From Desulfosporosinus sp. (GTDB taxonomy: Bacteria; Bacillota; Desulfitobacteriia; Desulfitobacteriales; Desulfitobacteriaceae), in the NCBI GenBank assembly GCA_031292055.1, contig JARLHV010000050.1, positions 37,369 to 101,368 of the forward strand: a stretch of DNA of 64,000 bases, read 5' to 3'. Below the pieces are notes generated by a model. The model was given only the letters and a program-made list of their open reading frames with translations, did no database searches and was not told the DNA's origin. Shown piece by piece: positions 41,612 through 62,149 of this stretch. The position numbers and the translations under genes are program-made. How positions within the stretch are numbered: position 1 is the stretch's first letter; each line of letters starts with the position of its first letter.

Positions 41612-42382
41612 TCATAATGATCCTCTTACGCCACACCACGCTGGCGTCTTGTCGTACATCGTCGCTATTTTTAATGGCATACACGATAACAAATATTTAC
41701 CCCACATGCGCTTAGTTTCAATCCTGAAGGGATATCCCATGACCTCAATATTTCCATCAACCTTACGAGGATTAGAGAAATAACTAACTAAGAATTCCCT
41801 AAAAGTCTCGCGGTCAAGCCTTATACTAGACGCATGATATTCCCAATCAATTCGCCCTAACGAAGGATCAACCATAACCCAAAGTCCAGGTATAATATCA
41901 GTCTCTGCTAATCTTCGCGCAGCAGCCTCCAGACTCACATCACAATACTTTGCGAGTTTATTCACCAAGAATACCAAACTATCCGAATACTTCCTCACAA
42001 AGTCTGATACAATCCACGTCGGCATTAATAAAGCCGCAGCAAAACTATCTGCCTCCTGCTTTTCGCGCTCCGACTCACCCACGCCAGGTTGCTGAATACC
42101 ACCTCTATGATCAAGAAGCACATGGCCGAATTCGTGAGCCACACCAAACCGTTGCACAGATACTGGTAAAAGAGAGTTGACATAAATCAGCGCTATTTCT
42201 TGAGCCACCATAAGTCTAGCTATTAAACCATCTGGCAAAGGGCGTCTATGGAGATGAATTTCAACATCAAGCTTCTTTTCTATGGCGTAGGCTATATGGT
42301 CTAGGGATAATGGAAATTTCTCTCTGACAAGATAACGTTCCACGAATGCTTGAGCGACTAAGTCCTCTCTTTCTCCCATCAC
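41612..42382 (-). CDS. ImmA/IrrE-family metalloprotease
   Basis: QRFGVAHEFGH (HExxH), EKQEADSFAAALLMP, VSLEAAARR. Confidence 0.9.
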   Translation of the reverse strand: MMGEREDLVAQAFVERYLVREKFPLSLDHIAYAIEKKLDVEIHLHRRPLPDGLIARLMVAQEIALIYVNSLLPVSVQRFGVAHEFGHVLLDHRGGIQQPGVGESEREKQEADSFAAALLMPTWIVSDFVRKYSDSLVFLVNKLAKYCDVSLEAAARRLAETDIIPGLWVMVDPSLGRIDWEYHASSIRLDRETFREFLVSYFSNPRKVDGNIEVMGYPFRIETKRMWGKYLLSCMPLKIATMYDKTPAWCGVRGSL

Positions 42383-42502
42383 CGCACCCCTCCAATTGTC
42401 GAAACATTACAATAATTGATGATATATGTCGAATGCATATTAAAACAAGACAACTACCCTAACCAGGGTAGTTGTTTATCTATAATATGTATATTTGGAG
42501 GA

Positions 42503-42913
42503 TCATTTTTTCTCTTGATTACCTTTCTGGCGTTCCCAACGTTCACGTTCAAGCTTGTATAGATGTTCAATCTGATCTTTAATGAGATTTTGGCTCTCTT
42601 CGGATAGATCTCTGGCTTTATAGAAAATGAGAAGTTCATCTTCGGGGGTGGGGCGAAATTCGTTTGTATTATCAGATGTAAGGGACTTGGGGTTAGTTGT
42701 TCGGCCAAGCAGATAATCAGTAGTAGTATTATAAAAATCTGCAATTTTAGAGAGCTTTTCAGCATCAGGAGTTCTTTTTCCAGACTCATATTGAGATATT
42801 GCTGCTCTGTCAAGATTAAGAAATCCAGCTAAATCTTCTTGATTTTTTCCAACACTTAATCGCAAATTCTTCATTCGTCTGGCTAAAATATTATCCAAAT
42901 TAATCACTCCCAC
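42503..42913 (-). CDS. XRE-family repressor (ImmR/CI-like)
   Basis: QEDLAGFLNLDRAAISQYESGKRTPD...TTDYLLGRT. Confidence 0.92.
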   Translation of the reverse strand: MGVINLDNILARRMKNLRLSVGKNQEDLAGFLNLDRAAISQYESGKRTPDAEKLSKIADFYNTTTDYLLGRTTNPKSLTSDNTNEFRPTPEDELLIFYKARDLSEESQNLIKDQIEHLYKLERERWERQKGNQEKK

Positions 42914-43054
42914 GATTTAGCATATCACAAATTGTTAACAAGAAGAATAACCTGAAATGGTAGTAACAAAATGTTATGAATGGCATTGACACGTAACGAC
43001 ATGTTAGGTATAATCTTAGTAACGTATTGTTAACAAAACGCAAAGGAGGGTAAC

Positions 43055-43288
43055 ATGATAGAGAAATTAAGAGAAAGACTAGGTATTACTAAGGCTGAGA
43101 TGATTAGCCGACTGGGTATAACACGTAATTACTATTCGATGATTGCAAACGGTGAACGCCCGATATCAATGAAACTTGGAATTAAAATTAGGGATGAATT
43201 TGGAATTTCGCTTGACATAATATTTTTTCCGAGCATGTTAACAATATGTTACTATCCAAGCAAAAAGCAATCTGATTTCTTAATTTAG
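43055..43288 (+). CDS. Cro-like HTH regulator
   Basis: LGITRNYYSMIANGERPIS; divergent from the repressor. Confidence 0.8.
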   Translation: MIEKLRERLGITKAEMISRLGITRNYYSMIANGERPISMKLGIKIRDEFGISLDIIFFPSMLTICYYPSKKQSDFLI

Positions 43289-43312
43289 ATGAAATGATTG
43301 AGGGGGATGAAT

Positions 43313-43660
43313 ATGAACCAAGCGGCTAAGGCAATTAGCGATCCAAAGATGATTGCAAAGAATATTTCTAACTGGGATGAGTTGCCGTTGTTTCTGACGG
43401 TTGAGCAAACAGCTCAACTTATGCAATGCGGAACTGCCCATATTTACAACTTAGCCAGAACCAAGGATTTTCCTGCCAGGCGCATGACCAAAACCATCGT
43501 TATATCAAGGGATGGTTTGCGTCAATGGGCCGAAGGTGATGAAAAGTGGAAGCAAAGTATTACAATCTGGCAGTGGCAAAATATCCTTCAGCAAATGCAA
43601 AGGATGGGTGAGGTTTTGGAAAGGATTGAAAAAGGCCGTAATTTATATACCGGAACGTAG
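43313..43660 (+). CDS. Excisionase-like helix-turn-helix protein
   Basis: LPLFLTVEQTAQLMQCGTAHIYNLARTKDFPARRM...ISRDGLRQW (HTH_17/AlpA-like). Confidence 0.75.
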   Translation: MNQAAKAISDPKMIAKNISNWDELPLFLTVEQTAQLMQCGTAHIYNLARTKDFPARRMTKTIVISRDGLRQWAEGDEKWKQSITIWQWQNILQQMQRMGEVLERIEKGRNLYTGT

Positions 43661-43677
43661 AAACGGAGGGGATATCA

Positions 43678-43827
43678 ATGAATCAAATCAGATGTCCCTA
43701 CTGCGGTAGAAAACTAGCTGAATTCAACCTACATGGAAAGCTACTATTTAAAACTAAATGCCAAAAGTGCGGGAAAATCGTAAATATCATGTTGGAATAC
43801 GGTAATAAGGGGGAGAAGCCCAGTTAA
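43678..43827 (+). CDS. Com-family zinc-ribbon protein, 49 aa (absent from ORF track)
   Basis: RBS GGAGGG; MNQIRCPYCGRKLAEFNLHGKLLFKTKCQKCGKIVNI..., two CxxC pairs. Confidence 0.7.
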   Translation: MNQIRCPYCGRKLAEFNLHGKLLFKTKCQKCGKIVNIMLEYGNKGEKPS

Positions 43828-44005
43828 TTACGATTAGTTTTAAATAAAACATTAATTATGCTATTAGGTTAGCCATATTCTACCACCCGATTTGAGTTTT
43901 AACCATGAGACAAACACACTAAGAAGTATTTATCCCTGACATTGCGTCCTGAAAGAGTCCCTTATCATTCTGAAAATTAATTAATTTTAGTGGAGTTGAA
44001 GCAAA

Positions 44006-44218
44006 TTGAAATACAACTTCAACGTAGAAATTAACGGTTATAAGCTGGGCGTTGCCGTTGATAAGCCAAGTTACTGGGGGATATACAAAATGGCACTGAA
44101 GCCATTTAGTGTTGAAACTATTAATGCGAGAGAGGCTCTATCTCACGCATATTATGCCTTAACTCATAGCGGGCGGATTCAGAGTCAATTCCTTAAGGGC
44201 AAATCTGTAAGGTTGTAA
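44006..44218 (+). CDS. Hypothetical protein
   Basis: 70-aa ORF, TTG start after GGAG, co-oriented with the early operon. Confidence 0.4.
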   Translation: MKYNFNVEINGYKLGVAVDKPSYWGIYKMALKPFSVETINAREALSHAYYALTHSGRIQSQFLKGKSVRL

Positions 44219-44241
44219 GGAAAGAAAGGGGGTCAAGAGCT

Positions 44242-45144
44242 ATGTCCATAGACATAAAAGACGCCGTGACACAATTAGAGGAAATGTTCTGCAAAATCAA
44301 TACTCAAGTATTCGGAGATAGAGCAAGGGCCAAATGGCCCGTGATCATTAACCGTTGTTTTCATCGTCAGTCTGTAAGCTATGAATACCAATATCCAGAG
44401 GCATTCTTCACGAATCTTCAATTTCAGCTAAGAATCCTTTTCCCCTACGAACTGATAAAGTCAAAATCGAATCGTCTTATCTTAGTAAAGCTGATCATCG
44501 ACAAGCGTATAAGTGGTGAGATTGATACATTTACGTACCATTTCGGAATGTTCTTAATCAATAGAAATTTACACCACAGAGAGAAGGAGGATTTCTCTGA
44601 ATCGTCCATCGGTAAAAAGAGGGCTGAGTTTGTTCAGACGCTGCCAATTTCCTACTTTTTAAGCGAGGATGATTTTATTTCAGCGATATGGTCTCAACTG
44701 ATTGAATATCGGGGGACGGAAACTAGAGAGTACCAACGAAATCCGTTTCTGAAAAATGTCCGGATTCTATTTAGCAATGAACAGTATGCTTCCGTGACAG
44801 GCGTTAGTTATTTCAGCGATGTTACTTGGGTGGAACCCATTTCAGGGAAACTCGATTTGGAATGCCGTAAATGGTCTGAAGAAAACGACCCAATGGCCCC
44901 GATTAGGATTCCAGAAGGATGGGTTCAAGGTGCTATTGTTTTGAAAAATGAAAGTTCGGGCCTGCGTCATTATGTAGAAAGTGTTCCTGTCCATGCCGGA
45001 AGCGCCATGCAGGTGAAATTCGGGAACGGATGGATTGATGGCCGGTATGAGTGGAGCTTTGATGGTAAAAATAAGATCCAGGTTCATTGTAATGATGATG
45101 TCGTTTATATTTCTGAAGGCCACCAAGTGAGAGTCAGAGGGTAG
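44242..45144 (+). CDS. Hypothetical protein with probable C-terminal DUF5348-like domain
   Basis: RBS AAGGGGG; C-terminal LRHYVESVPVHAGSAMQV...WIDGRYEW pattern. Confidence 0.55.
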   Translation: MSIDIKDAVTQLEEMFCKINTQVFGDRARAKWPVIINRCFHRQSVSYEYQYPEAFFTNLQFQLRILFPYELIKSKSNRLILVKLIIDKRISGEIDTFTYHFGMFLINRNLHHREKEDFSESSIGKKRAEFVQTLPISYFLSEDDFISAIWSQLIEYRGTETREYQRNPFLKNVRILFSNEQYASVTGVSYFSDVTWVEPISGKLDLECRKWSEENDPMAPIRIPEGWVQGAIVLKNESSGLRHYVESVPVHAGSAMQVKFGNGWIDGRYEWSFDGKNKIQVHCNDDVVYISEGHQVRVRG

Positions 45145-45171
45145 GAGTAGTAATTATTGGAGGGGTATTAA

Positions 45172-45849
45172 TTGTCTTCAAATGAAAAAATTCTTGAGAA
45201 GCTCCGTAAAATCCTAGCTAAGGCCAATAACAATCCATCGGCTGAAGAAGCTGAAACAGCTATGCTGATCGCCCAAAGAATTATGGTTGAGAACAATTTA
45301 TGTATAGATGATGTCAATCTTACTGAAGGAGACAAAATTAAGAAGGAGGCTGTAGAAGTCACCGTGTCCGATAAGATGCGTCTGGCATGGTGGGAAAGCG
45401 ATATAACAAGCATAATCGCAAAGAATTTTCGGTGTAAGTCATTTACAAGACGTTTCGCTAACCAAAAAAATATCCGTTTATGTCTTATGGGGTTAAAAGA
45501 GGATGTCGAGATTGCCAAGGAAACTATATCTTATGCTCTGAAGGCTATGAGTTATTATTCTTCACAATTTGTAAAAGCGAATAAAGGCTCAGAATTCACA
45601 ACAACGCAAATTAGGAATAGTTGGTTGAATGGGTTCATTCGAGGCCTTGGGGCTAAATTTGATAAACAAGTGAAGCAGAACAATTGGGGCCTTGTACTGG
45701 TAAAAGACAAAGTTGTTGAAGATGCAATTGAAAAGTTAGGTCTTAAAAAGAGAAGAAGTACATCTATTACCGGCGGCATAAGCTCGGCTTATCAATCTGG
45801 ATATCGTCAGGGTCAATCCTTCGAGAGTAGATCTGGTGTTATTCGTTAA
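45172..45849 (+). CDS. DUF2786-domain protein
   Basis: KILEKLRKILAKANNNPSAEEAETAMLIAQRIMVENNL; SWLNGFIRGL. Confidence 0.8.
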   Translation: MSSNEKILEKLRKILAKANNNPSAEEAETAMLIAQRIMVENNLCIDDVNLTEGDKIKKEAVEVTVSDKMRLAWWESDITSIIAKNFRCKSFTRRFANQKNIRLCLMGLKEDVEIAKETISYALKAMSYYSSQFVKANKGSEFTTTQIRNSWLNGFIRGLGAKFDKQVKQNNWGLVLVKDKVVEDAIEKLGLKKRRSTSITGGISSAYQSGYRQGQSFESRSGVIR

Positions 45850-46031
45850 AGGGGGTGGAGAGGTGCTGATATTTAAAAAGAAAAAGCCCACACTGGCGGC
45901 AACCAGAGTGAGCGAACTGGAACGAAAGCTTTATAATTTCAATTCTCATTCTAAACGAAATTCCAGGTGTACACAAGTGCTTGATAAAATTTGTGGATTT
46001 CATCCAAGCAACGAATATCGCAAGAAGCGTT

Positions 46032-46634
46032 CTAGGATTTGGCGTGCAAGGTCGTTAAGATCTCGTTGTGGCGGTTAATCATCTTGATAATGTGATTCCG
46101 GTCAACCAACTCTACTCGGTTTGCTCGGGCAGCTTCCTGGGCACCAGGCGTATAGTAGTTATTCGCGAAAACCATCATCAGAGTGAGTCCATAAATTGCT
46201 TTTGACGCAACGATGTTTTGAACAGCTTTATTGTTTACCTTGCTAGCATATCGTTTGCACTGGATACCCAGTCGATGGCCGTCGCGATAGTGAATGATAA
46301 GATCACAGCCTTGATCGCCCGTGGGGGGTGTGAACTCAGTTTTGCTGATCTTATCTTTCTCTAAGACCCTGAACAGCTTTTCAACGAATAACTCAAACTC
46401 TTGGCCGGTCATTCTGTCAACCTTAGTGATGCTGTAGGTGCCATATACCTTATCAAGTTTCTTCAAATGCTTTTCATGAATTTTTCGGGATGTCTTTTTG
46501 GACTTTTTACTTTTTTTGATAAGGTTCCGGAAGAACTTTTTAGTAAAACCTGATATTAAACCCAAGGCAATAGCTCCGAAAATTAAATAGTAAAACTCTT
46601 TTGGGGTTCTGGTAACCAAGTCGGTAAAGCTCAT
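46032..46634 (-). CDS. Mrr-like restriction endonuclease with N-terminal membrane anchor
   Basis: GQEFELFV, GDQGCDLII, GIQCKRY (D...QxK), YTPGAQEAA; one N-terminal hydrophobic helix. Confidence 0.85.
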   Translation of the reverse strand: MSFTDLVTRTPKEFYYLIFGAIALGLISGFTKKFFRNLIKKSKKSKKTSRKIHEKHLKKLDKVYGTYSITKVDRMTGQEFELFVEKLFRVLEKDKISKTEFTPPTGDQGCDLIIHYRDGHRLGIQCKRYASKVNNKAVQNIVASKAIYGLTLMMVFANNYYTPGAQEAARANRVELVDRNHIIKMINRHNEILTTLHAKS

Positions 46635-47012
46635 GGCATCAGTCCTTTAATAATTTGAACAAGAAGAATGTTTCAGTGGCAATTTTAGCACAGTTAACAC
46701 CTAGGAAAATTTTAATCCCCTTGCGCCAGTCTGGGCAAAAAACGATGTTTATTAGTATAGTTACCTATCTGTCCTATCCTCAATGGTTGATCGAGATCCG
46801 AAGTTCTGTCATTTACTTTATTTTGTCAACTTGGATGAATCCACCATTAATTTTTCGCCTTAAAGCGCGCTTTTTCCTCCTGTCCTGCAAGAAAAAAATG
46901 CTCAACTTGGCTGCTCTTTAAACTCTCGAATTTAGATAAGTTAAACGGTAGAAAGTTAAAATTGCTTTGGAGGTAATAAATTAAGGTTTATGAAGTAAGA
47001 GGGAGGAGTTGC

Positions 47013-47225
47013 ATGGATATTATCAATGTTGCTTGTGTCGTTTACGGCATTTATGTCGCATGTGACGCCGATCTTCGTCTAAAGAACTTTCGGGTAAAAG
47101 AGCTCAGTAAGGAATGGACCTTAGAGGATGCTGTCAATAAATACTGTGAATGGGAGTATCATCGAGGTTTGGTATTTGGTTGGAGCACGGTTATATATAT
47201 GACTACTAAACCTAGCCGATCATAG
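47013..47225 (+). CDS. Hypothetical protein
   Basis: RBS GGGAGGAG; 70 aa; no recognised motif. Confidence 0.4.
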   Translation: MDIINVACVVYGIYVACDADLRLKNFRVKELSKEWTLEDAVNKYCEWEYHRGLVFGWSTVIYMTTKPSRS

Positions 47226-47383
47226 CATTCAATACAAGGGGATGATGACGACAATTTTGACGACAACGACGATAAAAAAAGCATCAAAAAGACAAAAGAT
47301 TGATCTTATTTAAATCTCTAGAACCTGCACCACACAGGACTTCCTGCTCTTAGCTACTATCAAGGTGAAACATAGGAATCGAA

Positions 47384-47430
47384 TTCCCAAGCCGAGGATC
47401 GCGAGTTCGAATTTCGTCGTCCGCTCCATA
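47384..47430 (+). repeat. att copy 3 (tRNA-Gly 3' half, 47 bp, one mismatch)
   Basis: Matches 19321-19367 except C>T at 47413; starts exactly at the anticodon loop TTCCCAA. Confidence 0.93.
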
Positions 47431-47578
47431 AGTAATTTAAGCCAATAATGGCTTTAACGTAGGCTTTGAGGTATATTTGCGATTTATTCGTAGGTATACC
47501 TCTTTTGTTTATTCCTACGTAAGCCGTGGGTTTCACTCAGAGTAACGGCTACTGCCTAAATTTAAAAAAAGGTGGTAA

Positions 47579-47734
47579 AATCATGATAAATCCAACTATG
47601 CGGGGTTTCGTGACTACAGTTTGATGATAATGATATTTGGCAATGGCATACGAATTAACGAGGCAGTAAATCTAAAGTTGGATGATGTAGATTTAAAACG
47701 GAAAGTGATAACTAATTTACATTTTGCGGTTTAA
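47579..47734 (+). pseudogene. Tyrosine integrase remnant
   Basis: KSNYAGFRDYSLMIMIFGNGIRINEAVNLKLDDVDLKRKVI = box I region; no start codon, rest of gene absent. Confidence 0.75.
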
Positions 47735-48898: not shown

Positions 48899-49093
48899 AT
48901 GGAAAAAGCAATTGAAGTGAAAGGTCTGCTAAAGTCTTTCGAGGACACAGAAGTCCTAAAGGGCGTTGATTTTGAAGTGAAGCAAGGTGAGATTTTTGCC
49001 CTACTCGGCTCTAACGGTGCGGGTAAAACCACGATTGTCAAAATACTTACCACACTGTTGAAACCAGAATCAATATATAAACATAGTACATAA
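48899..49093 (+). pseudogene. Truncated ABC transporter ATP-binding protein
   Basis: Walker A GSNGAGKTT, then the ORF ends after 64 aa; no signature, Walker B or permease gene follows. Confidence 0.85.
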
Positions 49094-49311
49094 AAGTCAC
49101 CTCATGGATAGATTCTTCACTTCGTTCAGAATGACAAGCGAGAAAACTAAGTCCTTACATTTACTTCGCAGTTTTAGACTAATACGTAGTAATTGTTAGA
49201 AATATTATACCATTGAAGCCATTTTGTGTTGTTGTTAGGGTAGCTGGAGCGTCTTAGACTAAAAGTAGCGAGAAAAAAACTAAAAAAAGTATTGAAAATC
49301 TATTCAATATA

Positions 49312-49333
49312 TACTAATATAATTATATTAGTA
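49312..49333. promoter_or_regulatory. Perfect 22-bp palindrome, probable ArsR operator
   Basis: TACTAATATAATTATATTAGTA contains a TATAAT and lies 32 bp before the arsR start. Confidence 0.65.
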
Positions 49334-49365
49334 ATTGATAATAAAATAAACAGGAGGCTAAATGT

Positions 49366-49692
49366 TTGAGGTCAGACCTACAAATTGAGACAATGGCTGA
49401 AGAATTTAAGGTCTTAGGAGATAAAACGCGGTTGCGAATTTTATCATTACTACAGGGGCGAGAGTTATGTGTCTGTGAATTGACAGAAGTACTGGGCATA
49501 AGCCAGCCCGGGGTGTCTCAACATATGAGGCGTCTTCGTCAAATCGGATTTGTGAACGAACATCACGGAGGACAATGGGTTTATTATTCACTGAATGTAG
49601 GAAATCCACTGCTCGATTTGATTAATCCTATGTTTCTAAAGGTCGAGGAAGACGAAGAACGGCTTAACCTTGCTAAAGGCTGCTCCATTTAA
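49366..49692 (+). CDS. arsR: ArsR/SmtB-family repressor
   Basis: [13 protein letters not shown]...[25 protein letters not shown]; CxC metal-sensing motif; RBS CAGGAGG. Confidence 0.85.
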
Positions 49693-49839
49693 AAGAGTTA
49701 AAACCTCTAAGGGTTTATATTACAAGAGGATATCTCTTAAAAAATTTAAACAGCATGGTGATACGCCAAGTTCCCTTTGGAAAACTCAAACTAGAACATC
49801 TCGTAGAGGAGTATGTTTACAACATAAAAATGGGCGAAA

Positions 49840-50050
49840 CGGAATTATTTTCATCGTTAATGTGCTGATGGAAAAAGGAATGGCTTTGGGAACAGTACTG
49901 GCCTTCATGATGGCCGTAACTGCCTTAAGCCTGCCGGAAATGATTATTCTGCGCAAAGTGTTAAAACCTAAACTGCTTGGAATTTTCATAGGGATCATGA
50001 CGGTGGCGATTATTTTCGTAGGGTATTTGTTTAATTGGATCTTTGCTTAG
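49840..50050 (+). pseudogene. 3' remnant of an ArsP/DUF318-type permease
   Basis: Only the C-terminus remains: [39 protein letters not shown]; the upstream part of ORF 49670-50050 is unrelated hydrophilic sequence. Confidence 0.75.
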
Positions 50051-50194
50051 ATTGTCGTCGTTCATTGCGTTCTTGTATTCGCCCTGTATATTCTTTTATT
50101 ACTCAGCTTATGTACAGATTCAAGGGATAGCTATGGTCAGCAAATTGAGGGTCCCTAAGCGCTGATCGAGGAAGATAATTAAGGAGGAAGAGAA

Positions 50195-50434
50195 ATGGAT
50201 ATTAAAGTGTTAGGTACTGGATGTAAAAAATGCATTTCACTCTATAGTTTAGTTAATGAAGTAATCACTGAACTAGGTATTCAAGCCAATGTTGAAAAGG
50301 TGGAAGACATTGCTAAGATCGTTCAGTTTGGAGTAATGCTTACCCCCGCTCTGGTGATTAACGGAAAGGTAAAAATATCTGGAAAAGTGCCAAGCAAATC
50401 TGATGCAAAGAAATATATTCAAGAAGAAATGTAA
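50195..50434 (+). CDS. Small redox-active disulfide protein (thioredoxin-like)
   Basis: IKVLGTGCKKC...VMLTPALVING. Confidence 0.9.
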   Translation: MDIKVLGTGCKKCISLYSLVNEVITELGIQANVEKVEDIAKIVQFGVMLTPALVINGKVKISGKVPSKSDAKKYIQEEM

Positions 50435-50479
50435 TATGGCCATTCCTAATTTGTAATGTGGAAAGGAGGTGAAAATTCT

Positions 50480-50803
50480 ATGAGAATGCTGGGGGAATTT
50501 TTCCCGGAGTTCGTACAAAAGCTTGATGAGATGGATGCCTTGTATAATGAAAAGCGAATGATTGACGAAAAGACCTATCAATTCATTTGCTTTGCCCTTT
50601 CGATTAAGGCTCGTTCAAAACCTTGCGTCTTAAAGCACTTTAAAGGAGCCCTTGAAGCAGGGGCTACTGTTCAAGAAATATCGTATATTTTTGCCTTGGT
50701 AATGCGTGAGGCTGCAGGTGCCGACGACTGCTGGACCCACGATGTCATTGGTGATTGGAAAGAGATTTTGGCTGGAAATATCCACTGTGATTGTCAAAAA
50801 TAA
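50480..50803 (+). CDS. Carboxymuconolactone decarboxylase (AhpD-like) family protein
   Basis: IDEKTYQFICFALSI...CVLKHFKGALEAGAT; ATG after GGAGGTG. Confidence 0.8.
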   Translation: MRMLGEFFPEFVQKLDEMDALYNEKRMIDEKTYQFICFALSIKARSKPCVLKHFKGALEAGATVQEISYIFALVMREAAGADDCWTHDVIGDWKEILAGNIHCDCQK

Positions 50804-50966
50804 GTGTTCTAAAGGCTGTTGATAATATCAACAGCCTTTAGGGGTAGAAGAAAAAATTAGAGATGAATTTGGTAAAAACGCGACTCACTGTTGTGGTTTT
50901 AAATGGAATTATTCTAATAGGGCTGATCTGCTTAACTAATAGATTTTAATAATGAGGTGAATATTA

Positions 50967-51383
50967 ATGACCAGAATTAAGGTCGCGTTTGTTTGTGTAC
51001 ACAACTCTTGCCGATCTCAAATCGCTGAGGCTCTGGGCCAAAAACTTGCTGCAGATGTTTTGGAGTCATTTTCAGCGGGTACTGAAACAAAGCCTAATAT
51101 TAACCAGGATGCTGTTCGGATAATAAAACAGCTGTACGATATTAATATGGAAGAGACACAGTTTTCAAAGCTTATTTCGGATATTCCTACACCAGATATT
51201 GTCATTACAATGGGTTGTAATGTGGAGTGTCCCTATATACCTAGTAAGTATCGAGAAGATTGGGGCCTTGAAGATCCGACAGGCAAGAATGATGATGAGT
51301 TTGTAAAGACGGCCAGAGTAATAGAAAATAAGATTTTAGACTTAAAAAAGCGTATCAAAAACGAGCTAAAGGGACTAAGTTAA
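50967..51383 (+). CDS. arsC: Arsenate reductase (LMW-PTP type)
   Basis: FVCVHNSCRSQIAEA (CX5R), ITMGC, WGLEDP. Confidence 0.9.
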   Translation: MTRIKVAFVCVHNSCRSQIAEALGQKLAADVLESFSAGTETKPNINQDAVRIIKQLYDINMEETQFSKLISDIPTPDIVITMGCNVECPYIPSKYREDWGLEDPTGKNDDEFVKTARVIENKILDLKKRIKNELKGLS

Positions 51384-51456
51384 AAAAGAGGCAGGATGTA
51401 TGTTAAACCAAGGAGGGTATTGTGAATTAGCACTGCAGTAGAGGAGGGAACAGTTT

Positions 51457-52461
51457 ATGCAAATTTCCTCAAGAGAACTAAAGATCATTCAAACTTCAAC
51501 GCAATTGACATTTAGTGATATTTTTGGTTCTTGGAAGGCCCGTTGGGGTATTAATAGAATGAATTTCAAGGTAGAGCCCGGACTTTATAGTGTTGGGAAT
51601 CCAGGCAGCTCTTCCCCGGTTCTGGTTACAGCTAATTATAAAATGAGCTTTGACAGCCTGAGAAAAGAATTAAATGAGTTGGATGCATGGATTCTGGTTC
51701 TTGACACTAAAGGTATCAATGTATGGTGTGCTGCTGGAAAAGGAACGTTTGGAACCAAAGAACTTATAAATCGTATTGCAATAGTACAACTAGAGAAAGT
51801 TGTGTCTCATAAAACCATTATAATACCACAATTAGGCGCACCGGGTATAAGTGCTCATGAGGTTTCAAAATTTTCTGGGTTCAAAGTGTTGTATGGGCCT
51901 GTGAAGGCTAAGGATGTAAAAGAATTTATCAAGGCAGGAATGAAAGCTTCTGCTGAAATGAGGACAGTTAGGTTCAGTATTTATGATCGACTGGTCCTAA
52001 CCCCTGTGGATTTGGTAGGTACCTTTAGATTTTCCTTGATGATTTTTGGCATACTCTTTTTGTTAAATCTCCTTGGTTTTGGACCTTTTGGTTTCGTTGA
52101 TTTTTACGCCTATATGGGCGCAGTCTTGGCAGGATGTGTCTTAACTCCAGTCTTGCTGCCTTGGATTCCAGGCAGGGCTTTCGCGTGGAAGGGATGGTTA
52201 GTGGGACTCATTTGGGCCGCGTTCGTTAATGTATTCAATGGTTGGACAGCTGTTCCACTATATAGCGTATTGAGAGCTCTGGGGTATTTACTCGTTCTGC
52301 CTTCTGTATCCGCTTATTATGCAATGAACTTTACAGGTTCTTCAACGTTCACTTCCTTTTCCGGTGTCTTGAAAGAAATGAGAATAGCAGTTCCTGCGAT
52401 TGTAATATCAATATTCTTAGGGATAGTTTTGATTCTGGTTAACAGCTTTATTAAGCTTTAA
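51457..52461 (+). CDS. hgcA: Mercury methylation corrinoid protein HgcA
   Basis: Cap-helix motif TKGINVWCAAGKGTFG, VEPGLY, TANYKMSFD, plus a C-terminal multi-TM domain. Confidence 0.96.
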   Translation: MQISSRELKIIQTSTQLTFSDIFGSWKARWGINRMNFKVEPGLYSVGNPGSSSPVLVTANYKMSFDSLRKELNELDAWILVLDTKGINVWCAAGKGTFGTKELINRIAIVQLEKVVSHKTIIIPQLGAPGISAHEVSKFSGFKVLYGPVKAKDVKEFIKAGMKASAEMRTVRFSIYDRLVLTPVDLVGTFRFSLMIFGILFLLNLLGFGPFGFVDFYAYMGAVLAGCVLTPVLLPWIPGRAFAWKGWLVGLIWAAFVNVFNGWTAVPLYSVLRALGYLLVLPSVSAYYAMNFTGSSTFTSFSGVLKEMRIAVPAIVISIFLGIVLILVNSFIKL

Positions 52462-52473
52462 GGAGTTGTCTTT

Positions 52474-52773
52474 ATGAAGCATCAATATTTGAAAAATGTT
52501 TCTACATTGAAACTGAAGTCAGATCAATGTACGGGCTGTGGAAGGTGCATGGAAGTTTGCCCGCATAATGTTTTTCTGATGGAAGAGAAAAAGTCGGTCA
52601 TTGTTGATAAAGATCGATGTATGGAATGCGGTGCATGCGTCAAAAACTGTCCGTTTGATGCCTTAGAAGTAAAGCAGGGTGTTGGTTGTGCTTACGCTAT
52701 CATTATGGGCTGGCTGACCGGAACTGAACCGAGTTGCGATTGTTCAGATAACAGCAGTGGTAGTTGTTGTTAA
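52474..52773 (+). CDS. hgcB: Mercury methylation ferredoxin HgcB
   Basis: Two CX2CX2CX3C motifs (CTGCGRCMEVCP, CMECGACVKNCP), GVGCA and a Cys-rich tail ending CC; 12 bp after hgcA. Confidence 0.95.
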   Translation: MKHQYLKNVSTLKLKSDQCTGCGRCMEVCPHNVFLMEEKKSVIVDKDRCMECGACVKNCPFDALEVKQGVGCAYAIIMGWLTGTEPSCDCSDNSSGSCC

Positions 52774-52820
52774 TTACGAATTAATTTAGAGTCTGATATT
52801 TAGAGGAGGCAATGAATCTT

Positions 52821-52851
52821 ATGAAGACAAAAGTGCTATTTGTATGTATTC
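52821..52851 (+). pseudogene. 5' stub of a second arsC-like gene
   Basis: RBS GAGGAGG, then MKTKVLFVCI (ArsC start up to the catalytic Cys), followed by an abrupt switch to unrelated sequence. Confidence 0.55.
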
Positions 52852-53420
52852 CCTCCCCAAACTGGGTCGTTTTTCAGAACGATTCAGTTTTAAAACGATT
52901 AAGGACTTGGAGCCGAACCTTTGGGTAAAAATGGTATAACATGAGGACTGCCACAGGAACGGCAAGTTCCAGCATTTTTTAGGAAAAAAATTATAGGTTG
53001 GATATCAGTTATTATATCAAATGTAATTATTATATTTTATCTGGAAGGGTTCATAGGGTTCATATTTTATTCGTTTAAAGGGAATTTAGGATTTTTATTA
53101 TCATTTTTTATTGCACCAATTGGATTAATTATGGGCTATATAGGCAGAAATGAGAATAGGACTATTAAGGTCTTTGGGCAGTATGAAATATTGCTGTTAT
53201 TACTTTTGGCTTTCTTTATTGGCCCATAGGATATATTATTGAAATGTTAGTAAATAAAGCAATAAAGCAATAAAGCAATGGCCCCATGTTTAACGAGGGG
53301 GCTTTATGTAATCTTTTTATCGGACTCAAATCAAATTGTTTCCTTCACAGATCGTCCTGACAAGCATCTGAAATCATGTTACAATATAAGTGTTAAAGTA
53401 AAATTTTGGGAGTTGTTTAT

Positions 53421-53723
53421 ATGAGCGAGTTTCTCTCAAGGCTTCCGGAGGAATTTAAAAAAGATATATACTCTGCAATTGAGATACTTAAGAATGCCGG
53501 ATGCAAAGAAATATTCATTTTTGGCTCATTGGTTACGGGTACTTACAGGGAAGATTCTGATATAGATATTGCCGTAAAGGGATGTTTGCCTGAGAATTAT
53601 TTTGCTTTGTTAGGGAAATTATTGACTACATTAAGCCGTCCTGTCGATTTAATCAATTTAGATAGGGAAGATCCATTTTCACAATACCTTGAAAAGGAAG
53701 GTGATCTTTATCGCGTCTCCTGA
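53421..53723 (+). CDS. Minimal nucleotidyltransferase (MNT) antitoxin
   Basis: IFIFGSLVTG...EDSDIDIAV...PVDLINL. Confidence 0.88.
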   Translation: MSEFLSRLPEEFKKDIYSAIEILKNAGCKEIFIFGSLVTGTYREDSDIDIAVKGCLPENYFALLGKLLTTLSRPVDLINLDREDPFSQYLEKEGDLYRVS

Positions 53724-54171
53724 AAAGGCAATATCTCAAATAATTTTCGAGATACAGCAAATAGATGAATTATTTACTTCCTTCAGCGAATTATTGGAAA
53801 AGAGTAAAGTAGAGGAACCGACTTTAATCGAGCTCACCGCAATAGGCTCAATACTGCATTCCTTTTATAATGGAATAGAGAACATATTTAAAACAATCGG
53901 GAAAAATATTGATGGTGAAATTCCTAGTGGTAACCACTGGCATAGCCAACTCATAAAACAAATGACTGAATCCACATACAAACGTGATTCTATTATTTCA
54001 GATGGTTTGAAAGAAAAATTGGCAGACTACCTGGCATTCAGGCATTTTTATCGCAATTCATATTCCTTTTGGTTAAAATGGAATGAGTTAAAGAAACTGA
54101 CAGACCCTGTGATTATTGTGTGGTCAGAATTTAAGATTGAATTGAAGACATTTATGGATAACCAAATTTAG
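53689..54171 (+). CDS. HEPN (DUF86/HepT-like) ribonuclease
   Basis: LHSFYNGIENIF, HWHSQLI, YLAFRHFYRNSY; overlaps the MNT gene; exact start uncertain. Confidence 0.85.
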   Translation: MKRKVIFIASPEKAISQIIFEIQQIDELFTSFSELLEKSKVEEPTLIELTAIGSILHSFYNGIENIFKTIGKNIDGEIPSGNHWHSQLIKQMTESTYKRDSIISDGLKEKLADYLAFRHFYRNSYSFWLKWNELKKLTDPVIIVWSEFKIELKTFMDNQI

Positions 54172-58846: not shown

Positions 58847-59302
58847 TCACTGGGCATTGTTATTATGAACCTTGCGGCAATTATGACAATAACCGTATAT
58901 TTCTAAATTGTGTCCGGTAACTTCGAAATCTATCTTATTTTTTAGAGTCTGTTTAAGTTCACCGATTGGACATTCTTCAATAGAAATCAATTTGTGGCAA
59001 CTGACGCAGTAAAGATGGTGTTTGTGCTCATGCTGGTTTAGTTCATACCGTACTTTACCGTCATCTACTCTGCTAGATTTAAGAACTAGGTTCTTAGAGG
59101 TAAATGTATCGAGGGTCCTATAGACAGTCGATAGATTTATCGAAGCAGTCTTTGCCCTTAACATTATAAATAGTTGTTCTGCCGTCAGCGGAGATTCTGA
59201 CTGTTCGAGTAGTTCCAGAATGGCGAATCTGTGTTTAGTGCTTTTCATGCCTTCTTTTTTAAGTACGTCCTTATAGTTAATGTTTTCTGCCAACAAGATC
59301 AT
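58847..59302 (-). CDS. Fur-family regulator, probably Zur
   Basis: STVYRTL, HEHKHHLYCVSC, GYCHNC; divergent from znuACB. Confidence 0.88.
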   Translation of the reverse strand: MILLAENINYKDVLKKEGMKSTKHRFAILELLEQSESPLTAEQLFIMLRAKTASINLSTVYRTLDTFTSKNLVLKSSRVDDGKVRYELNQHEHKHHLYCVSCHKLISIEECPIGELKQTLKNKIDFEVTGHNLEIYGYCHNCRKVHNNNAQ

Positions 59303-59503
59303 TCCTTAATGTTTAATAGTTTTGTAAATCTCTATGTTCATTCTAATCCTTTTAAATATTTTAGCAATATTTAACTTGTCAAAAGTTGTCGAACGTTATG
59401 TATAACTGTTTTACTATGATTGCAAGAAGTTTAAAATTCACGAATAAAGAAGGAAAGAAATGGTTTACAATTATGAATGAGAGAGTATAATAAATGGAGA
59501 GAA

Positions 59504-59524
59504 TGCAAATGGAATGCATTTGCA
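59504..59524. promoter_or_regulatory. Probable Zur/Fur operator
   Basis: TGCAAATG-gaatg-CATTTGCA palindrome downstream of TTTACA-16-TATAAT and 30 bp before znuA. Confidence 0.6.
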
Positions 59525-59554
59525 AATACAAATAAAGAAGGTAAGGTATCTTAG

Positions 59555-60493
59555 ATGCATTCAAAGTCAATTAAAATTCTGGGCCTAATTATATTAAGCT
59601 TATTGGTCTTAAGTGGCTGTGGGACTAACAACGAGTCTAAGGCTACGATTAGTCAAACCACAGCTTCAAATCAAGTCACAAACAAGACTGAAAAACCGAT
59701 AACAATAGCTGCCTCCTTCTATCCTATGTATATTTTTGCGTTAAATGTTGCTAAGGACATGCCAAATGTAAATGTTATCGATATGACGAAGCCTATCACC
59801 GGATGCCTTCATGATTATACGGTTACGCCTGACGATATGAAGAATCTGGAGGGAGCGCAATTCTTCATTATAAACGGAGCGGGAATGGAATCCTTTATGA
59901 ATAAGGTTGTAAATCAAATGCCCAATTTAAAAATTATTGATTCCAGTAAAGGAATACAGTTAATTAAAGGTCAAGGCGATGAAGGAGATAATCCTCATCT
60001 TTGGGTAAGTATCTCTAATGCTATTCTACAGGTGGGTAATATTGGAGAGCAACTCTCTTTGCTAGACCCTACTAATGCTGCAAAATATAAGGCCAACACC
60101 AGTGCGTACATTAAAAAGCTCGAAGCAGAAAGAGATAAAATGCACCAAGCCTTGGATGGCGTCAAAAACCGTGATATCATTACGTTCCATGAGGCTTTTC
60201 CCTATTTCGCCAAAGAATTCAATTTAAACATAGTTGGGGTCATTGAACGTGAACCGGGTTCAGAACCCAGTGCTAAAGAATTGGCGGAAACAATAGACAA
60301 GGTAAATAGTCTAAAGGTAAAAGCGCTTTTTGCAGAACCTCAATATTCGACTAAAGCGGCAGATACAATTGCTAAAGAAACTGGTGCTAAAGTTTATACG
60401 CTCGACCCAGTCGTAACAGGCCCTATGGATGCTGATGCCTATATCAATATTATGGACAGTAATCTTAAAACATTACAAGAGGCGCTGAAATGA
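59555..60493 (+). CDS. znuA: Zinc/metal ABC transporter substrate-binding lipoprotein
   Basis: Lipobox LSGC, GCLHDY, NPHLW, TFHEAFPYFA, LDP. Confidence 0.88.
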   Translation: MHSKSIKILGLIILSLLVLSGCGTNNESKATISQTTASNQVTNKTEKPITIAASFYPMYIFALNVAKDMPNVNVIDMTKPITGCLHDYTVTPDDMKNLEGAQFFIINGAGMESFMNKVVNQMPNLKIIDSSKGIQLIKGQGDEGDNPHLWVSISNAILQVGNIGEQLSLLDPTNAAKYKANTSAYIKKLEAERDKMHQALDGVKNRDIITFHEAFPYFAKEFNLNIVGVIEREPGSEPSAKELAETIDKVNSLKVKALFAEPQYSTKAADTIAKETGAKVYTLDPVVTGPMDADAYINIMDSNLKTLQEALK

Positions 60494-61326
60494 ACATGAT
60501 ACAACAAAAATGTAGTCATAGTTGTCAAGGAACATCCTGTAAGTGTGGACTATGTTGTACTCAAATTACAAACTTTGGTATTTCGCGTGGCGGTACAGAA
60601 ATATTACGAAACGTCGATCTCCACATTCACTGTGGGGATTTGACCGCTATCATCGGCCCTAATGGTGCTGGAAAAAGCACTCTCTTAAAGGCTATCCTTG
60701 GAGAGATTTCCCATACTGGCGAACTTTTGTTTCTTGACGCCCAAAACGAAGGGACAACGAGACCGATTATTGGTTATGTCCCACAGAAGCTTGAACTTGA
60801 TTCTAGTTCCCCAACCAGCGTACTTGATTTATTTGCTGCTGCCTATACGAATATCCCTATTTGGTTGACTATTTCCAAAAAGGTGCGGGAGCGTGTTCGA
60901 AAAGGTTTAGCTCGAGTTCAAGGGGAACATTTAATAAATAAGCGCTTAGGAGCCTTATCAGGTGGGGAGTTACAAAGGGTTTTATTAGCACTTGCCCTTG
61001 ATCCAATTCCTCACCTCTTACTTCTGGATGAACCAGTTTCGGGTATTGACCAGAGAGGGTTGGAATTGTTTTATAAAACAGTTTCATTGCTGCGAGAAAA
61101 CTACGACTTATCCATTATCTTGGTTTCTCATGATCTTAATCTGGTTGCGGAGTATGCTAATCGTGTAGCGTTTGTGAATAATAAGACGATTGAATGTGTT
61201 GGAACTCCACAAGAAGTATTCAATGATGAAAAAGTAATACAAACGTTTGGTTTAGATTGGTCGAAACATTATCAAAAGGATGAGAAGGATGAGAAGGACA
61301 GGGTAGATAATGCACATTTGGTATAG
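60490..61326 (+). CDS. znuC: Zinc/metal ABC transporter ATP-binding protein
   Basis: GPNGAGKST, LSGGELQRV, LLDEP, SHDL. Confidence 0.88.
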   Translation: MNMIQQKCSHSCQGTSCKCGLCCTQITNFGISRGGTEILRNVDLHIHCGDLTAIIGPNGAGKSTLLKAILGEISHTGELLFLDAQNEGTTRPIIGYVPQKLELDSSSPTSVLDLFAAAYTNIPIWLTISKKVRERVRKGLARVQGEHLINKRLGALSGGELQRVLLALALDPIPHLLLLDEPVSGIDQRGLELFYKTVSLLRENYDLSIILVSHDLNLVAEYANRVAFVNNKTIECVGTPQEVFNDEKVIQTFGLDWSKHYQKDEKDEKDRVDNAHLV

Positions 61327-62149
61327 TCTGGTAGACTTATTGCTTCCTTTCGGATGGCTCCATCATGATTTTATGAAGAACGCTCTCTTGGGTGTTTTAT
61401 TGGTAACGCCAATTTTCGGATTGTTAGGTACAATGGTCGTTAATAATAAAATGGCCTTCTTTTCTGATTCATTGGGTCACTCTGCCTTAACAGGTATTGC
61501 CATTGGTGTCATATTGGGCATCAAAAATCCTATTTGGTCAATGCTCTTTTTTTCGGTCTTGATTACCATTGCAATTCTAGTGGTTAAAGAAGCAAATACG
61601 GCTTCGACTGATACGATCATCGGGGTGTTTTCTTCTACAGCAATGGCACTTGGAATAGTAATACTTTCGCGCAATGGAGGATTCACTAAATATTCCGTCT
61701 ATCTGATTGGAGATTTGTTGAGTATTAATTCATCCGACTTGCTGACCCTTGGAATTGTATTTGTTGTTGTTATTGTTGTATGGATTGTTATTTTTAATAA
61801 ACTTCTGCTGGCGAGCATGAATCAATCTCTAGCAGCGAGCAGAGGGATTAAGGTTCGACTTTATGAATACCTATTTGCCATGATTATGGCGGTCATTGTA
61901 ACAATTTCAATACAATGGGTTGGCATACTAATTATTAGTTCACTGTTAATTTTACCGGCAGCTTCTTCAAGAAATATTGCCAAAAACATGAGGCAATACC
62001 ATAGTTACTCTGTTTTGATTGCTCTTATTTCCGGAATATCGGGATTGATTTTATCCTACTTTTGGGGAACTGCCACTGGGGCAACGATTGTATTGATCTC
62101 ATCCGTATTTTTTGCAGTTACATTTATAATGAAGTTAAAACTTGGGTGA
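61310..62149 (+). CDS. znuB: Zinc/metal ABC transporter permease
   Basis: MAFFSDSLGHSALTG, YLIGDLL, VGILIISSLLILPA. Confidence 0.88.
   Translation: MHIWYSLVDLLLPFGWLHHDFMKNALLGVLLVTPIFGLLGTMVVNNKMAFFSDSLGHSALTGIAIGVILGIKNPIWSMLFFSVLITIAILVVKEANTASTDTIIGVFSSTAMALGIVILSRNGGFTKYSVYLIGDLLSINSSDLLTLGIVFVVVIVVWIVIFNKLLLASMNQSLAASRGIKVRLYEYLFAMIMAVIVTISIQWVGILIISSLLILPAASSRNIAKNMRQYHSYSVLIALISGISGLILSYFWGTATGATIVLISSVFFAVTFIMKLKLG

Follow-up and report, generated by a model that had tools for sequence, protein, structure and literature searches.

Which promoter and which regulator serve the mercury-methylation genes hgcAB when these stand behind the remains of an arsenic operon? The question is raised by a 64,000-nucleotide stretch of contig JARLHV010000050.1 from Desulfosporosinus sp. 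(assembly GCA_031292055.1; hereafter the window, with all positions counted from its first letter). The locus in question is a chromosomal mosaic in a Desulfosporosinus-like bacterium, in which a decayed arsenic module, arsR-[arsP pseudogene]-arsE-AhpD-like, lies beside arsC-hgcA-hgcB(-arsC stub), with a hairpin between the two halves. We judge the chances to be evenly balanced that a single ArsR-gated promoter feeds both halves, with a strong step-down at this hairpin, which lacks a U-tract.

The regulation and native role of hgcAB are open questions of mercury biogeochemistry; the leading hypotheses, so far tested in one Desulfovibrionaceae model, are control by ArsR and a connection with arsenic. 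In Pseudodesulfovibrio mercurii ND132 arsR directly adjoins hgcAB and is co-transcribed with it as arsR2-hgcA-hgcB (Gionfriddo et al., bioRxiv 10.1101/2022.10.17.512643; AEM 2023), and ArsR control of hgcAB, with responsiveness to arsenic or S-adenosylhomocysteine (SAH), has been shown there (Gionfriddo et al., bioRxiv 10.1101/2022.10.17.512643). An arsR-hgcAB arrangement is also given for P. hydrargyri BerOc1 (Goni-Urriza et al. 2020, as cited in bioRxiv 10.1101/2022.10.17.512643), and Firmicutes are absent from the taxa listed with this arrangement (bioRxiv 10.1101/2022.10.17.512643). Other neighbourhoods show hgcAB flanked by acr3, arsC, arsM and arsR (McDaniel et al. 2020, PMC7438021, Fig. 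6), and of 31 confirmed methylators in a survey, 14 had arsR within three open reading frames (ORFs) of hgcA. Linkage of ars genes to hgcAB in other methylators, which a sequence-only reading of the window had mentioned, is thus established in the literature, and so is the control of hgcAB by ArsR. Specific to the present locus are its mosaic and decayed state, an acr3-type ArsR in the place of the hgc-type regulator, the internal hairpin and the transcript evidence. It contributes a Firmicute example with in situ transcript data and supplies testable candidate operators, those of the window's ArsR and of its relatives' hgc-type ArsR. The locus refines the known picture and does not change it, being a well-documented but ordinary example.

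Genes of the two halves

Everything that the sequence-only reading had pointed out was found again in its place, co-oriented on the + strand. The identity of the methylation genes is clear. HgcA (51457–52461), the corrinoid protein of mercury methylation, scores 507.5 bits on the equivalog model NF040863 (cut-off 275) and remains below the cut-offs of the competing HgcAB_like (199.9, cut-off 285) and CdhD-type (77, cut-off 306) models. Its cap-helix motif NVWCAAGK (GINVWCAAGKGTFG), of the form N(V/I)WCA(A/G)GK, includes the corrinoid-ligating Cys, and a crude hydropathy scan, in which the five helices were not all resolved, gave peaks at residues 184–239 and 303–334 in the C-terminal half. HgcB (52474–52773), its 2×[4Fe–4S] ferredoxin partner, starts 12 nt past the hgcA stop, scores 137 bits on NF040864 (cut-off 99) and carries two CX2CX2CX3CP motifs (CTGCGRCMEVCP and CMECGACVKNCP), GVGC and a C-terminal CC (...GSCC). 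The presence of both equivalogs makes the strain a likely mercury methylator, as had been proposed, as far as this can be told from sequence. In Desulfosporosinus genomes and metagenome-assembled genomes, HgcA shares 71–88% identity with that of the window.

The gene 5' of hgcA, arsC (50967–51383; PF01451), encodes a thioredoxin-type arsenate reductase of the low-molecular-weight phosphatase (LMWP) type. The protein combines the CX5R P-loop CVHNSCRS (Cys10, Arg16) with two resolving cysteines in GCNVECP (Cys84, Cys88), and its best solved relative is the Corynebacterium glutamicum arsenate reductase 3t38, whose GCGDVCP aligns with GCNVECP. Scores below the NCBIfam equivalog cut-offs for the pI258 type (TIGR02691, 62.7 vs 174.3; NF010053, 71.3 vs 215) point to a different ArsC subfamily. 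Relatives with 75–82% identity occur across Desulfitobacteriaceae under the name 'arsenate reductase ArsC'. The idea of an hgc-specific paralogue was rejected, as this family supplies the ordinary ArsC in Desulfitobacteriaceae, D. hafniense-type genomes among them.

A second, truncated frame of 38 codons (MKTKVLFVCI...) follows hgcB at 52812–52928 with its own GGAGG ribosome-binding site. The stub sequence is weak by itself, and it is relatives that carry the identification (85 relative loci were fetched and are cited here by L-numbers): at the same place after hgcB, D. sp. OT (L019) retains MKTKVLFICIHNS and then a stop, and L028 has a full-length arsC. The stub thus appears to be the remnant of a second LMWP/arsC gene, and with it all four gene calls of the sequence-only reading for this half (arsC, hgcA with NVWCAAGK, hgcB and the arsC stub) are borne out by PF01451, NF040863, NF040864 and the relatives' arsC. 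A terminator-like hairpin followed by a T-run was scored at 52956–52980 on the + strand; RNA contigs end by 53083, and this hairpin is the probable end of the arsC-hgcAB transcript.

The upstream half is headed by arsR (49366–49692), which encodes an ArsR/SmtB repressor of 108 aa from a TTG start. The protein bears a winged-helix HTH_5 domain (PF01022, 64 bits), scores 92.5 bits on NF033788 (cut-off 55) and contains the thiolate motif RELCVCEL, in line with an As(III)-responsive ArsR; the CxC that had been noticed earlier is thus present, as ELCVCEL. Two Cys residues suffice in R773 ArsR. In D. burensis, D. metallidurans and D. sp. BICA1-9, arsR-acr3 or arsR-metallophosphatase-acr3 operons begin with a repressor gene whose product shares 75–80% identity with the window's ArsR. 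At the level of sequence identity this shows the window's arsR to be an orthologue of the repressor of arsR-acr3 operons. This acr3-type arsR appears to have reached the locus through rearrangement, and to have been joined in that way to a decayed arsP-arsE-AhpD module.

Decay is most evident in arsP (~49716–50050, + strand), a pseudogene matching PF03773 at profile positions 231–293 of 294 only. Its N-terminal ~135 codons are gone, the remainder is frameshifted and the last two helices alone are intact; ArsP of intact relatives aligns to it just from about residue 136 on, across two reading frames. The following arsE (50195–50434) encodes a thioredoxin-like protein of the MTH895/ArsE family (TIGR00412, 108.2 bits, cut-off 62; PF13192, 97 bits) with CxxC as GTGCKKC, and it is 86% identical to the copy in L002, the closest relative. 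The last gene of this half (ORF 50456–50803, likely start 50480) encodes a small AhpD/CMD-like redox protein (PF02627, 24.5 bits, cut-off 23), in which SKPCVLKH stands where CxxCxxxH is expected, the first Cys being replaced by Ser, and which ends in HCDC. It has weak matches to AhpD-domain selenoprotein families and shares 96% identity with the L002 copy along its whole length. The permease remnant, thioredoxin-like gene and CMD gene of the sequence-only reading were accordingly recovered (PF03773 in part, TIGR00412 and PF02627). Its description of the whole as an arsenic-resistance-like operon does not hold for a functional operon: the sole transporter gene, arsP, is a pseudogene, and neither acr3 nor arsB was found at 49–53 kb in the ORF list or by profile scans.

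Promoter, hairpin and transcripts

A sigma-70-type promoter-like site, TTGAAA-17 nt-TAATAT, was scored at 49292–49320 on the + strand, and a TTGnAA-17-TAATAT arrangement recurs 5' of the orthologous arsR genes in L082–L084. Its -10 box and the expected transcription start are overlapped by the operator-like sequence of the sequence-only reading, a perfect 22-bp palindrome consisting of TACTAATATAA joined to TTATATTAGTA (49312–49333), here regarded as a putative ArsR operator. Perfect palindromes with arms of at least 9 occur just twice in the 64 kb, at 49312–49333 and at 50809–50841 (16+1+16). Dinucleotide shuffles give an expectation of ~0.07 palindromes with arms of at least 11 per window, and when the local AT-rich spacer was shuffled 5000 times, 3 shuffles reached the arm length of the 22-bp palindrome; the palindromes are non-random. 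The palindrome core ATATAA-TTATAT lies at the same position over the -10 box in the arsR promoters of D. burensis and D. metallidurans. Together with the conserved promoter layout, this amounts to a phylogenetic footprint that supports an operator. Binding of ArsR to the 22-bp palindrome is inferred, as is the nature of its ligand. A second full operator palindrome (up to 3 mismatches) was not found in the window; half-site matches are confined to 33–44 kb, with none near arsC-hgcAB.

The second palindrome (50809–50841) lies between the two halves and on the + strand folds into a hairpin with a 17-bp RNA stem (-23.3 kcal/mol, z-score -6.2). In the window it is followed by AGGGGTAGAAG, that is, by no U-tract as found in intrinsic terminators, and the terminator scan omits it. 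In L002 the same hairpin stands after the last gene of the unit and is followed by the T-run TTTTTAAAT. Homology between the window and L002 stops at 50839, the 3' base of the hairpin, indicating that the window lost the U-tract. The hairpin would thus be the ancestral terminator of the arsE-CMD module, and a recombination joint appears to have put AGGGGTAG where the U-tract had been. The hairpin and the CMD 3' end are kept together in several co-occurring strains with differing downstream flanks. As a perfect 16+1+16 palindrome far longer than terminators need, ~125 nt 5' of arsC, the element could instead be a binding site for a dimeric regulator of arsC-hgcAB. We hold this to be very improbable: in L002 the same sequence follows the unit's last gene and precedes a T-run and unrelated DNA, it is conserved with the CMD 3' end in co-occurring strains whose downstream flanks differ, and RNA depth falls there (see below).

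The exact sequence was found in bioreactor metagenomes. Four metatranscriptomes from the same bioreactor study were available as assembled contigs only, with no strand information, alongside four DNA metagenome runs (X1–X4). In the four RNA runs the arsR module is covered at contig depths of 35–75, from 49345–49420 through 50752, and this start of high depth fits transcription beginning just past the -10 box. The hgc unit is covered at ~2–11, from 50862–50920 to 53003–53083, and depth is 0 at 53084–53274 in all four runs. RNA depth thus drops ~10-fold at the hairpin, with an hgc-unit to arsR-unit ratio of ~0.10–0.13 in each run, and DNA depth is level at ~25 across the locus. The RNA-free flanks argue against DNA carry-over. 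Within the hgc unit, RNA contigs span arsC/hgcA (51269–51596), hgcA/hgcB (52203–52548) and hgcB/stub (52752–53083), and these genes are therefore co-transcribed. These data fit the suggestion that the 3' genes could be uncoupled at the hairpin, in that contig depth is ~10-fold lower beyond it and no RNA contig crosses it in any run. The contigs share one end at 50752, which falls on a branch of the k=31 graph, and the missing stretch 50753–50861 is best read as a short dead end clipped by the assembler, in which case most transcripts would stop within ~100 nt of this end, at the hairpin.

A single promoter would account for these observations as follows. ArsR would bind the 22-bp palindrome over the -10 box and start of the only recognisable promoter (49292–49320) and would be released by As(III)-type thiophilic ligands via its ELCVC site, upon which transcription would proceed through arsR, arsE and the AhpD-like gene. 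About nine-tenths of the RNA signal would end at the 50809–50841 hairpin, deprived of its U-tract by the recombination joint at its 3' base; the ~10-fold step-down could arise from partial termination, from stabilisation of the upstream RNA by the 3' hairpin, or from both. The remainder would read through or survive processing, giving a low-level arsC-hgcA-hgcB-stub transcript that ends near 52980–53080, and expression of hgcAB would be weak, with the control by ArsR an indirect one. The lack of another promoter-like site, the lost U-tract and the constant depth ratio support this model. ArsR control of hgcAB depends on read-through of the hairpin, and read-through as the source of the hgc transcripts is a point on which we would lean neither way. 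The REP elements of E. coli malEFG and the Rhodobacter puf operon provide examples of intra-operon hairpins that set unequal mRNA levels, with RNA much higher upstream than downstream. The window resembles them in having a stable intercistronic stem-loop at such a step, and differs in that its hairpin began as an ordinary terminator.

Several points weigh against the single-promoter model. Contig depth is a crude measure of expression and the contigs are unstranded; read-through is not directly seen, as no RNA contig of any variant covers 50753–50861 in any of the four runs; and co-regulation cannot be demonstrated with four similar samples. Nor would a 17-bp hairpin that lacks a U-tract be expected to halt 90% of transcription, and differential RNA stability or a separate promoter may contribute to the step. 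Moreover, the k=31 DNA graph branches at 50545–50580 and 50702–50797, a second CMD remnant is present at genome depth, and the hairpin is shared by related strains. The RNA gap, and likewise the physical adjacency of the halves, is therefore partly assembly-dependent.

The main rival explanation assumes two independent units, the arsR module ending at the hairpin and arsC-hgcAB being transcribed from its own weak, probably constitutive promoter in 50842–50966, with no influence of ArsR or arsenic. The RNA contigs of the hgc unit begin at 50862, 50872 and 50920, just 3' of the hairpin, and none bridges it; the hairpin is the true operon end in L002, and there is no copy of the ArsR operator near arsC. 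Against this, the promoter scan scored no promoter-like site in 50842–50966, where by eye only a weak match, TCAACA-17-AAAAAA, is seen, this stretch has no homologue among the promoters of relatives, and the low-depth hgc unit has gaps of comparable size at other places. We regard separate promoters as unlikely, though a serious competitor to the single ArsR-gated promoter.

A further caveat concerns the locus itself: the evidence that the two halves adjoin is the assembly of the window, and this passes through a short repeat. For 50545–50800 the same bioreactor contains three other versions: a truncated second copy of the CMD 3' part, which skips 76 nt and is present at genome depth; that of an L002-like Desulfosporosinus at about 5–7x; and another variant at about 18x, which shares the hairpin and has other downstream flanks. 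It is conceivable that arsR-arsE-CMD and hairpin-arsC-hgcAB lie apart in the genome and were joined by the assembler via the ~100-nt CMD 3' stretch shared with the second copy. DNA unitigs do break at 50545–50580 and 50731–50767, a 74-nt unitig at 50723–50796 has ~2x genome depth, and the truncated CMD copy has a different left flank. An independent contig bridging both halves was not found: an exact HgcA look-up gave one 2.7-kb Logan contig starting at 50767, JGI metagenome scans for the bridging pattern and for the arsC-side joint were both empty, and a search for Nanopore runs gave none. Depth across the four DNA samples is equal for all segments and does not tell which CMD copy joins the hgc side. 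Conversely, an Illumina read is longer than the exact stretch in common, which assemblers with larger k therefore resolve. The CMD frame continues unbroken through the joint and matches the L002 CMD at full length, ArsR and ArsC are both recorded with a longest contig of 120,014 nt, and in L002, too, arsE-CMD-hairpin adjoins hgcAB. Taken together, an artefactual junction appears improbable, a lesser rival to a contiguous locus transcribed from the ArsR-gated promoter.

Regulators and gene orders at related loci

The relatives carry a different regulator. A distinct ArsR clade (MKYSYAEY...GEMCACQLL...), with 34–47% identity to the ArsR of the window, stands directly 5' of hgcA or arsC-hgcA in 12 of the 20 closest loci. 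The promoters of this hgc type contain two TATAGAC-N4-ATCTATA boxes, 34–41 nt apart, which bracket the -10 sequence TATAAT. This conserved pair was found within 1 kb 5' of hgcA in L001, L004, L005, L007, L009, L011, L012, L014–L020, L022 and L025, and in most cases the distinct ArsR and then (arsC-)hgcAB come after it; in L014–L016, from three species, the boxes lie directly before hgcA without an adjacent regulator gene. In the 1 kb preceding hgcA the motif has 29 matches, from 16 loci, vs 4 in the other 1.14 Mb, which corresponds to a ~100-fold enrichment. No description of the two-box operator or of the regulon of the hgc-type ArsR was found in the literature searched.

The hgc-type loci of Desulfosporosinus and Desulfitobacterium resemble the window in their hgcAB (71–88% identical) and arsC (76–82% identical), whereas their regulator and boxes are missing from it: neither the hgc-type ArsR nor the boxes (up to 1 mismatch) occur anywhere in the 64-kb window, and tblastn revealed no remnant of an hgc-type arsR between the hairpin and arsC. 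The hgc unit of the window thus appears to have lost the hgc-type ArsR and the two-box operator used by its relatives. Combining these observations with the transcript data, a joint reading can be put forward tentatively, as something we think possible and slightly doubt. Desulfosporosinus, Desulfitobacterium and allied Firmicutes would control hgcAB via a dedicated ArsR clade acting on paired TATAGAC-N4-ATCTATA operators around the -10 box, and the window strain would be a natural regulator-swap variant, in which a canonical As(III)-ArsR promoter supplies hgcAB with low-level transcription across a recombination-crippled terminator. If true, a comparison of such variants inside a single bioreactor, which also contains an L002-like strain with a different arrangement, could reveal the signals that set hgcAB expression.

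Gene order varies among the relatives. In L002 the order is arsR, a CoA-disulfide-reductase-like gene, hgcA, hgcB, the last 15 arsP codons, arsE, CMD and the hairpin with TTTTT. The arsE-CMD-hairpin block, which precedes arsC-hgcAB in the window, thus follows hgcAB in L002. Other loci read arsR-acr3-arsC-hgcAB (L013), arsR-arsC-acr3-hgcAB (L024), arsR-arsP-arsE-acr3-hgcAB (L034), arsR-acr3-hgcAB-arsC (L028) and arsR-arsC-hgcAB (L019). With at least five gene orders among relatives, the evidence points to repeated reshuffling of the ars-hgcAB linkage in this lineage. As a side observation, the gene between arsR and hgcA in L002 (8254–9906) encodes a 550-aa CoA-disulfide-reductase-like protein with, as judged from its sequence, a rhodanese-type C-terminus, and represents another thiol-redox gene recruited to an hgc operon.

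Compared with known systems, the window shares with ND132 and BerOc1 an ArsR/SmtB gene 5' of and co-oriented with hgcAB, and the same proposal of arsenic-responsive repression applies. In ND132, however, arsR lies directly beside hgcAB with no other ars genes near, whereas in the window four ORFs and a strong hairpin intervene, the ArsR is of the arsR-acr3 type with ELCVC, and the hgc unit includes arsC. The stringing together of arsR, arsC, arsP and arsE with hgcAB is likewise seen in other Firmicutes ars-hgcAB operons and in the neighbourhoods of PMC7438021. Those operons are compact and keep an intact efflux gene; the window, in which acr3 is missing, arsP is broken, a hairpin lies internally and arsR is foreign, represents a rearranged, decayed derivative. 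The upstream half alone resembles the organoarsenical module arsR-arsP-arsE of ND132 'operon C', having arsR, a PF03773 permease, a PF13192 thioredoxin-like gene and then a small redox protein, but here the permease is a pseudogene, and the regulator and two redox proteins remain.

Surroundings of the locus

The left edge of the rearranged segment is marked by a truncated ABC-transporter ATPase gene (48899–49093, + strand) of 64 aa, which contains the Walker A region only (PF00005 profile positions 1–39 of 137) and comes after PadR-DUF1048-DUF1048, the ATPase gene of this PadR-DUF1048 operon being cut off at 49093. At the truncation point lies the core of a short, metagenome-abundant repeat (49106–49141) with a DNA contig depth of 300–670 vs ~25 in the flanks, and loose contig ends are numerous at 49106–49181 in the DNA contigs of the four metagenomes. 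The repeat GGATAGATTCTTCACTTCGTTCAGAATGACAAGCGA (RFFTSFRMT in frame; whole stretch 49073–49263) joins many different flanks. Its core has one copy in the window and none in the 85 fetched loci.

DNA-level homology to relatives is limited to hgcAB, sometimes with arsC, and the flanks differ in every species. Despite such mosaic, island-like hgcAB contexts, tblastn of PLSDB (E up to 1e-5) gave no plasmid-borne HgcA homologue. A riboswitch or other RNA element near hgcA was also considered and rejected, as an Rfam scan of 46–56 kb with E up to 1 gave just one spurious long non-coding RNA match.

Further upstream, 41612–47734 resembles a decayed integrative element, with an IrrE/M78 peptidase, an HTH_17 excisionase-like gene, DUF2786/DUF7168 and an Mrr restriction endonuclease; its integrase remnant at 47621–47734 is a 37-aa tyrosine-recombinase fragment. 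Downstream of the hgc unit, a toxin–antitoxin pair of the MNT nucleotidyltransferase/HepT-like type (PF18765, PF20797) at 53406–54171 is covered at a metatranscriptome contig depth of 12–28. At 58847–62149 a Fur-family regulator adjoins a metal ABC uptake system of the ZnuA-ZnuC-ZnuB type, and the two probably form a Zur regulon.

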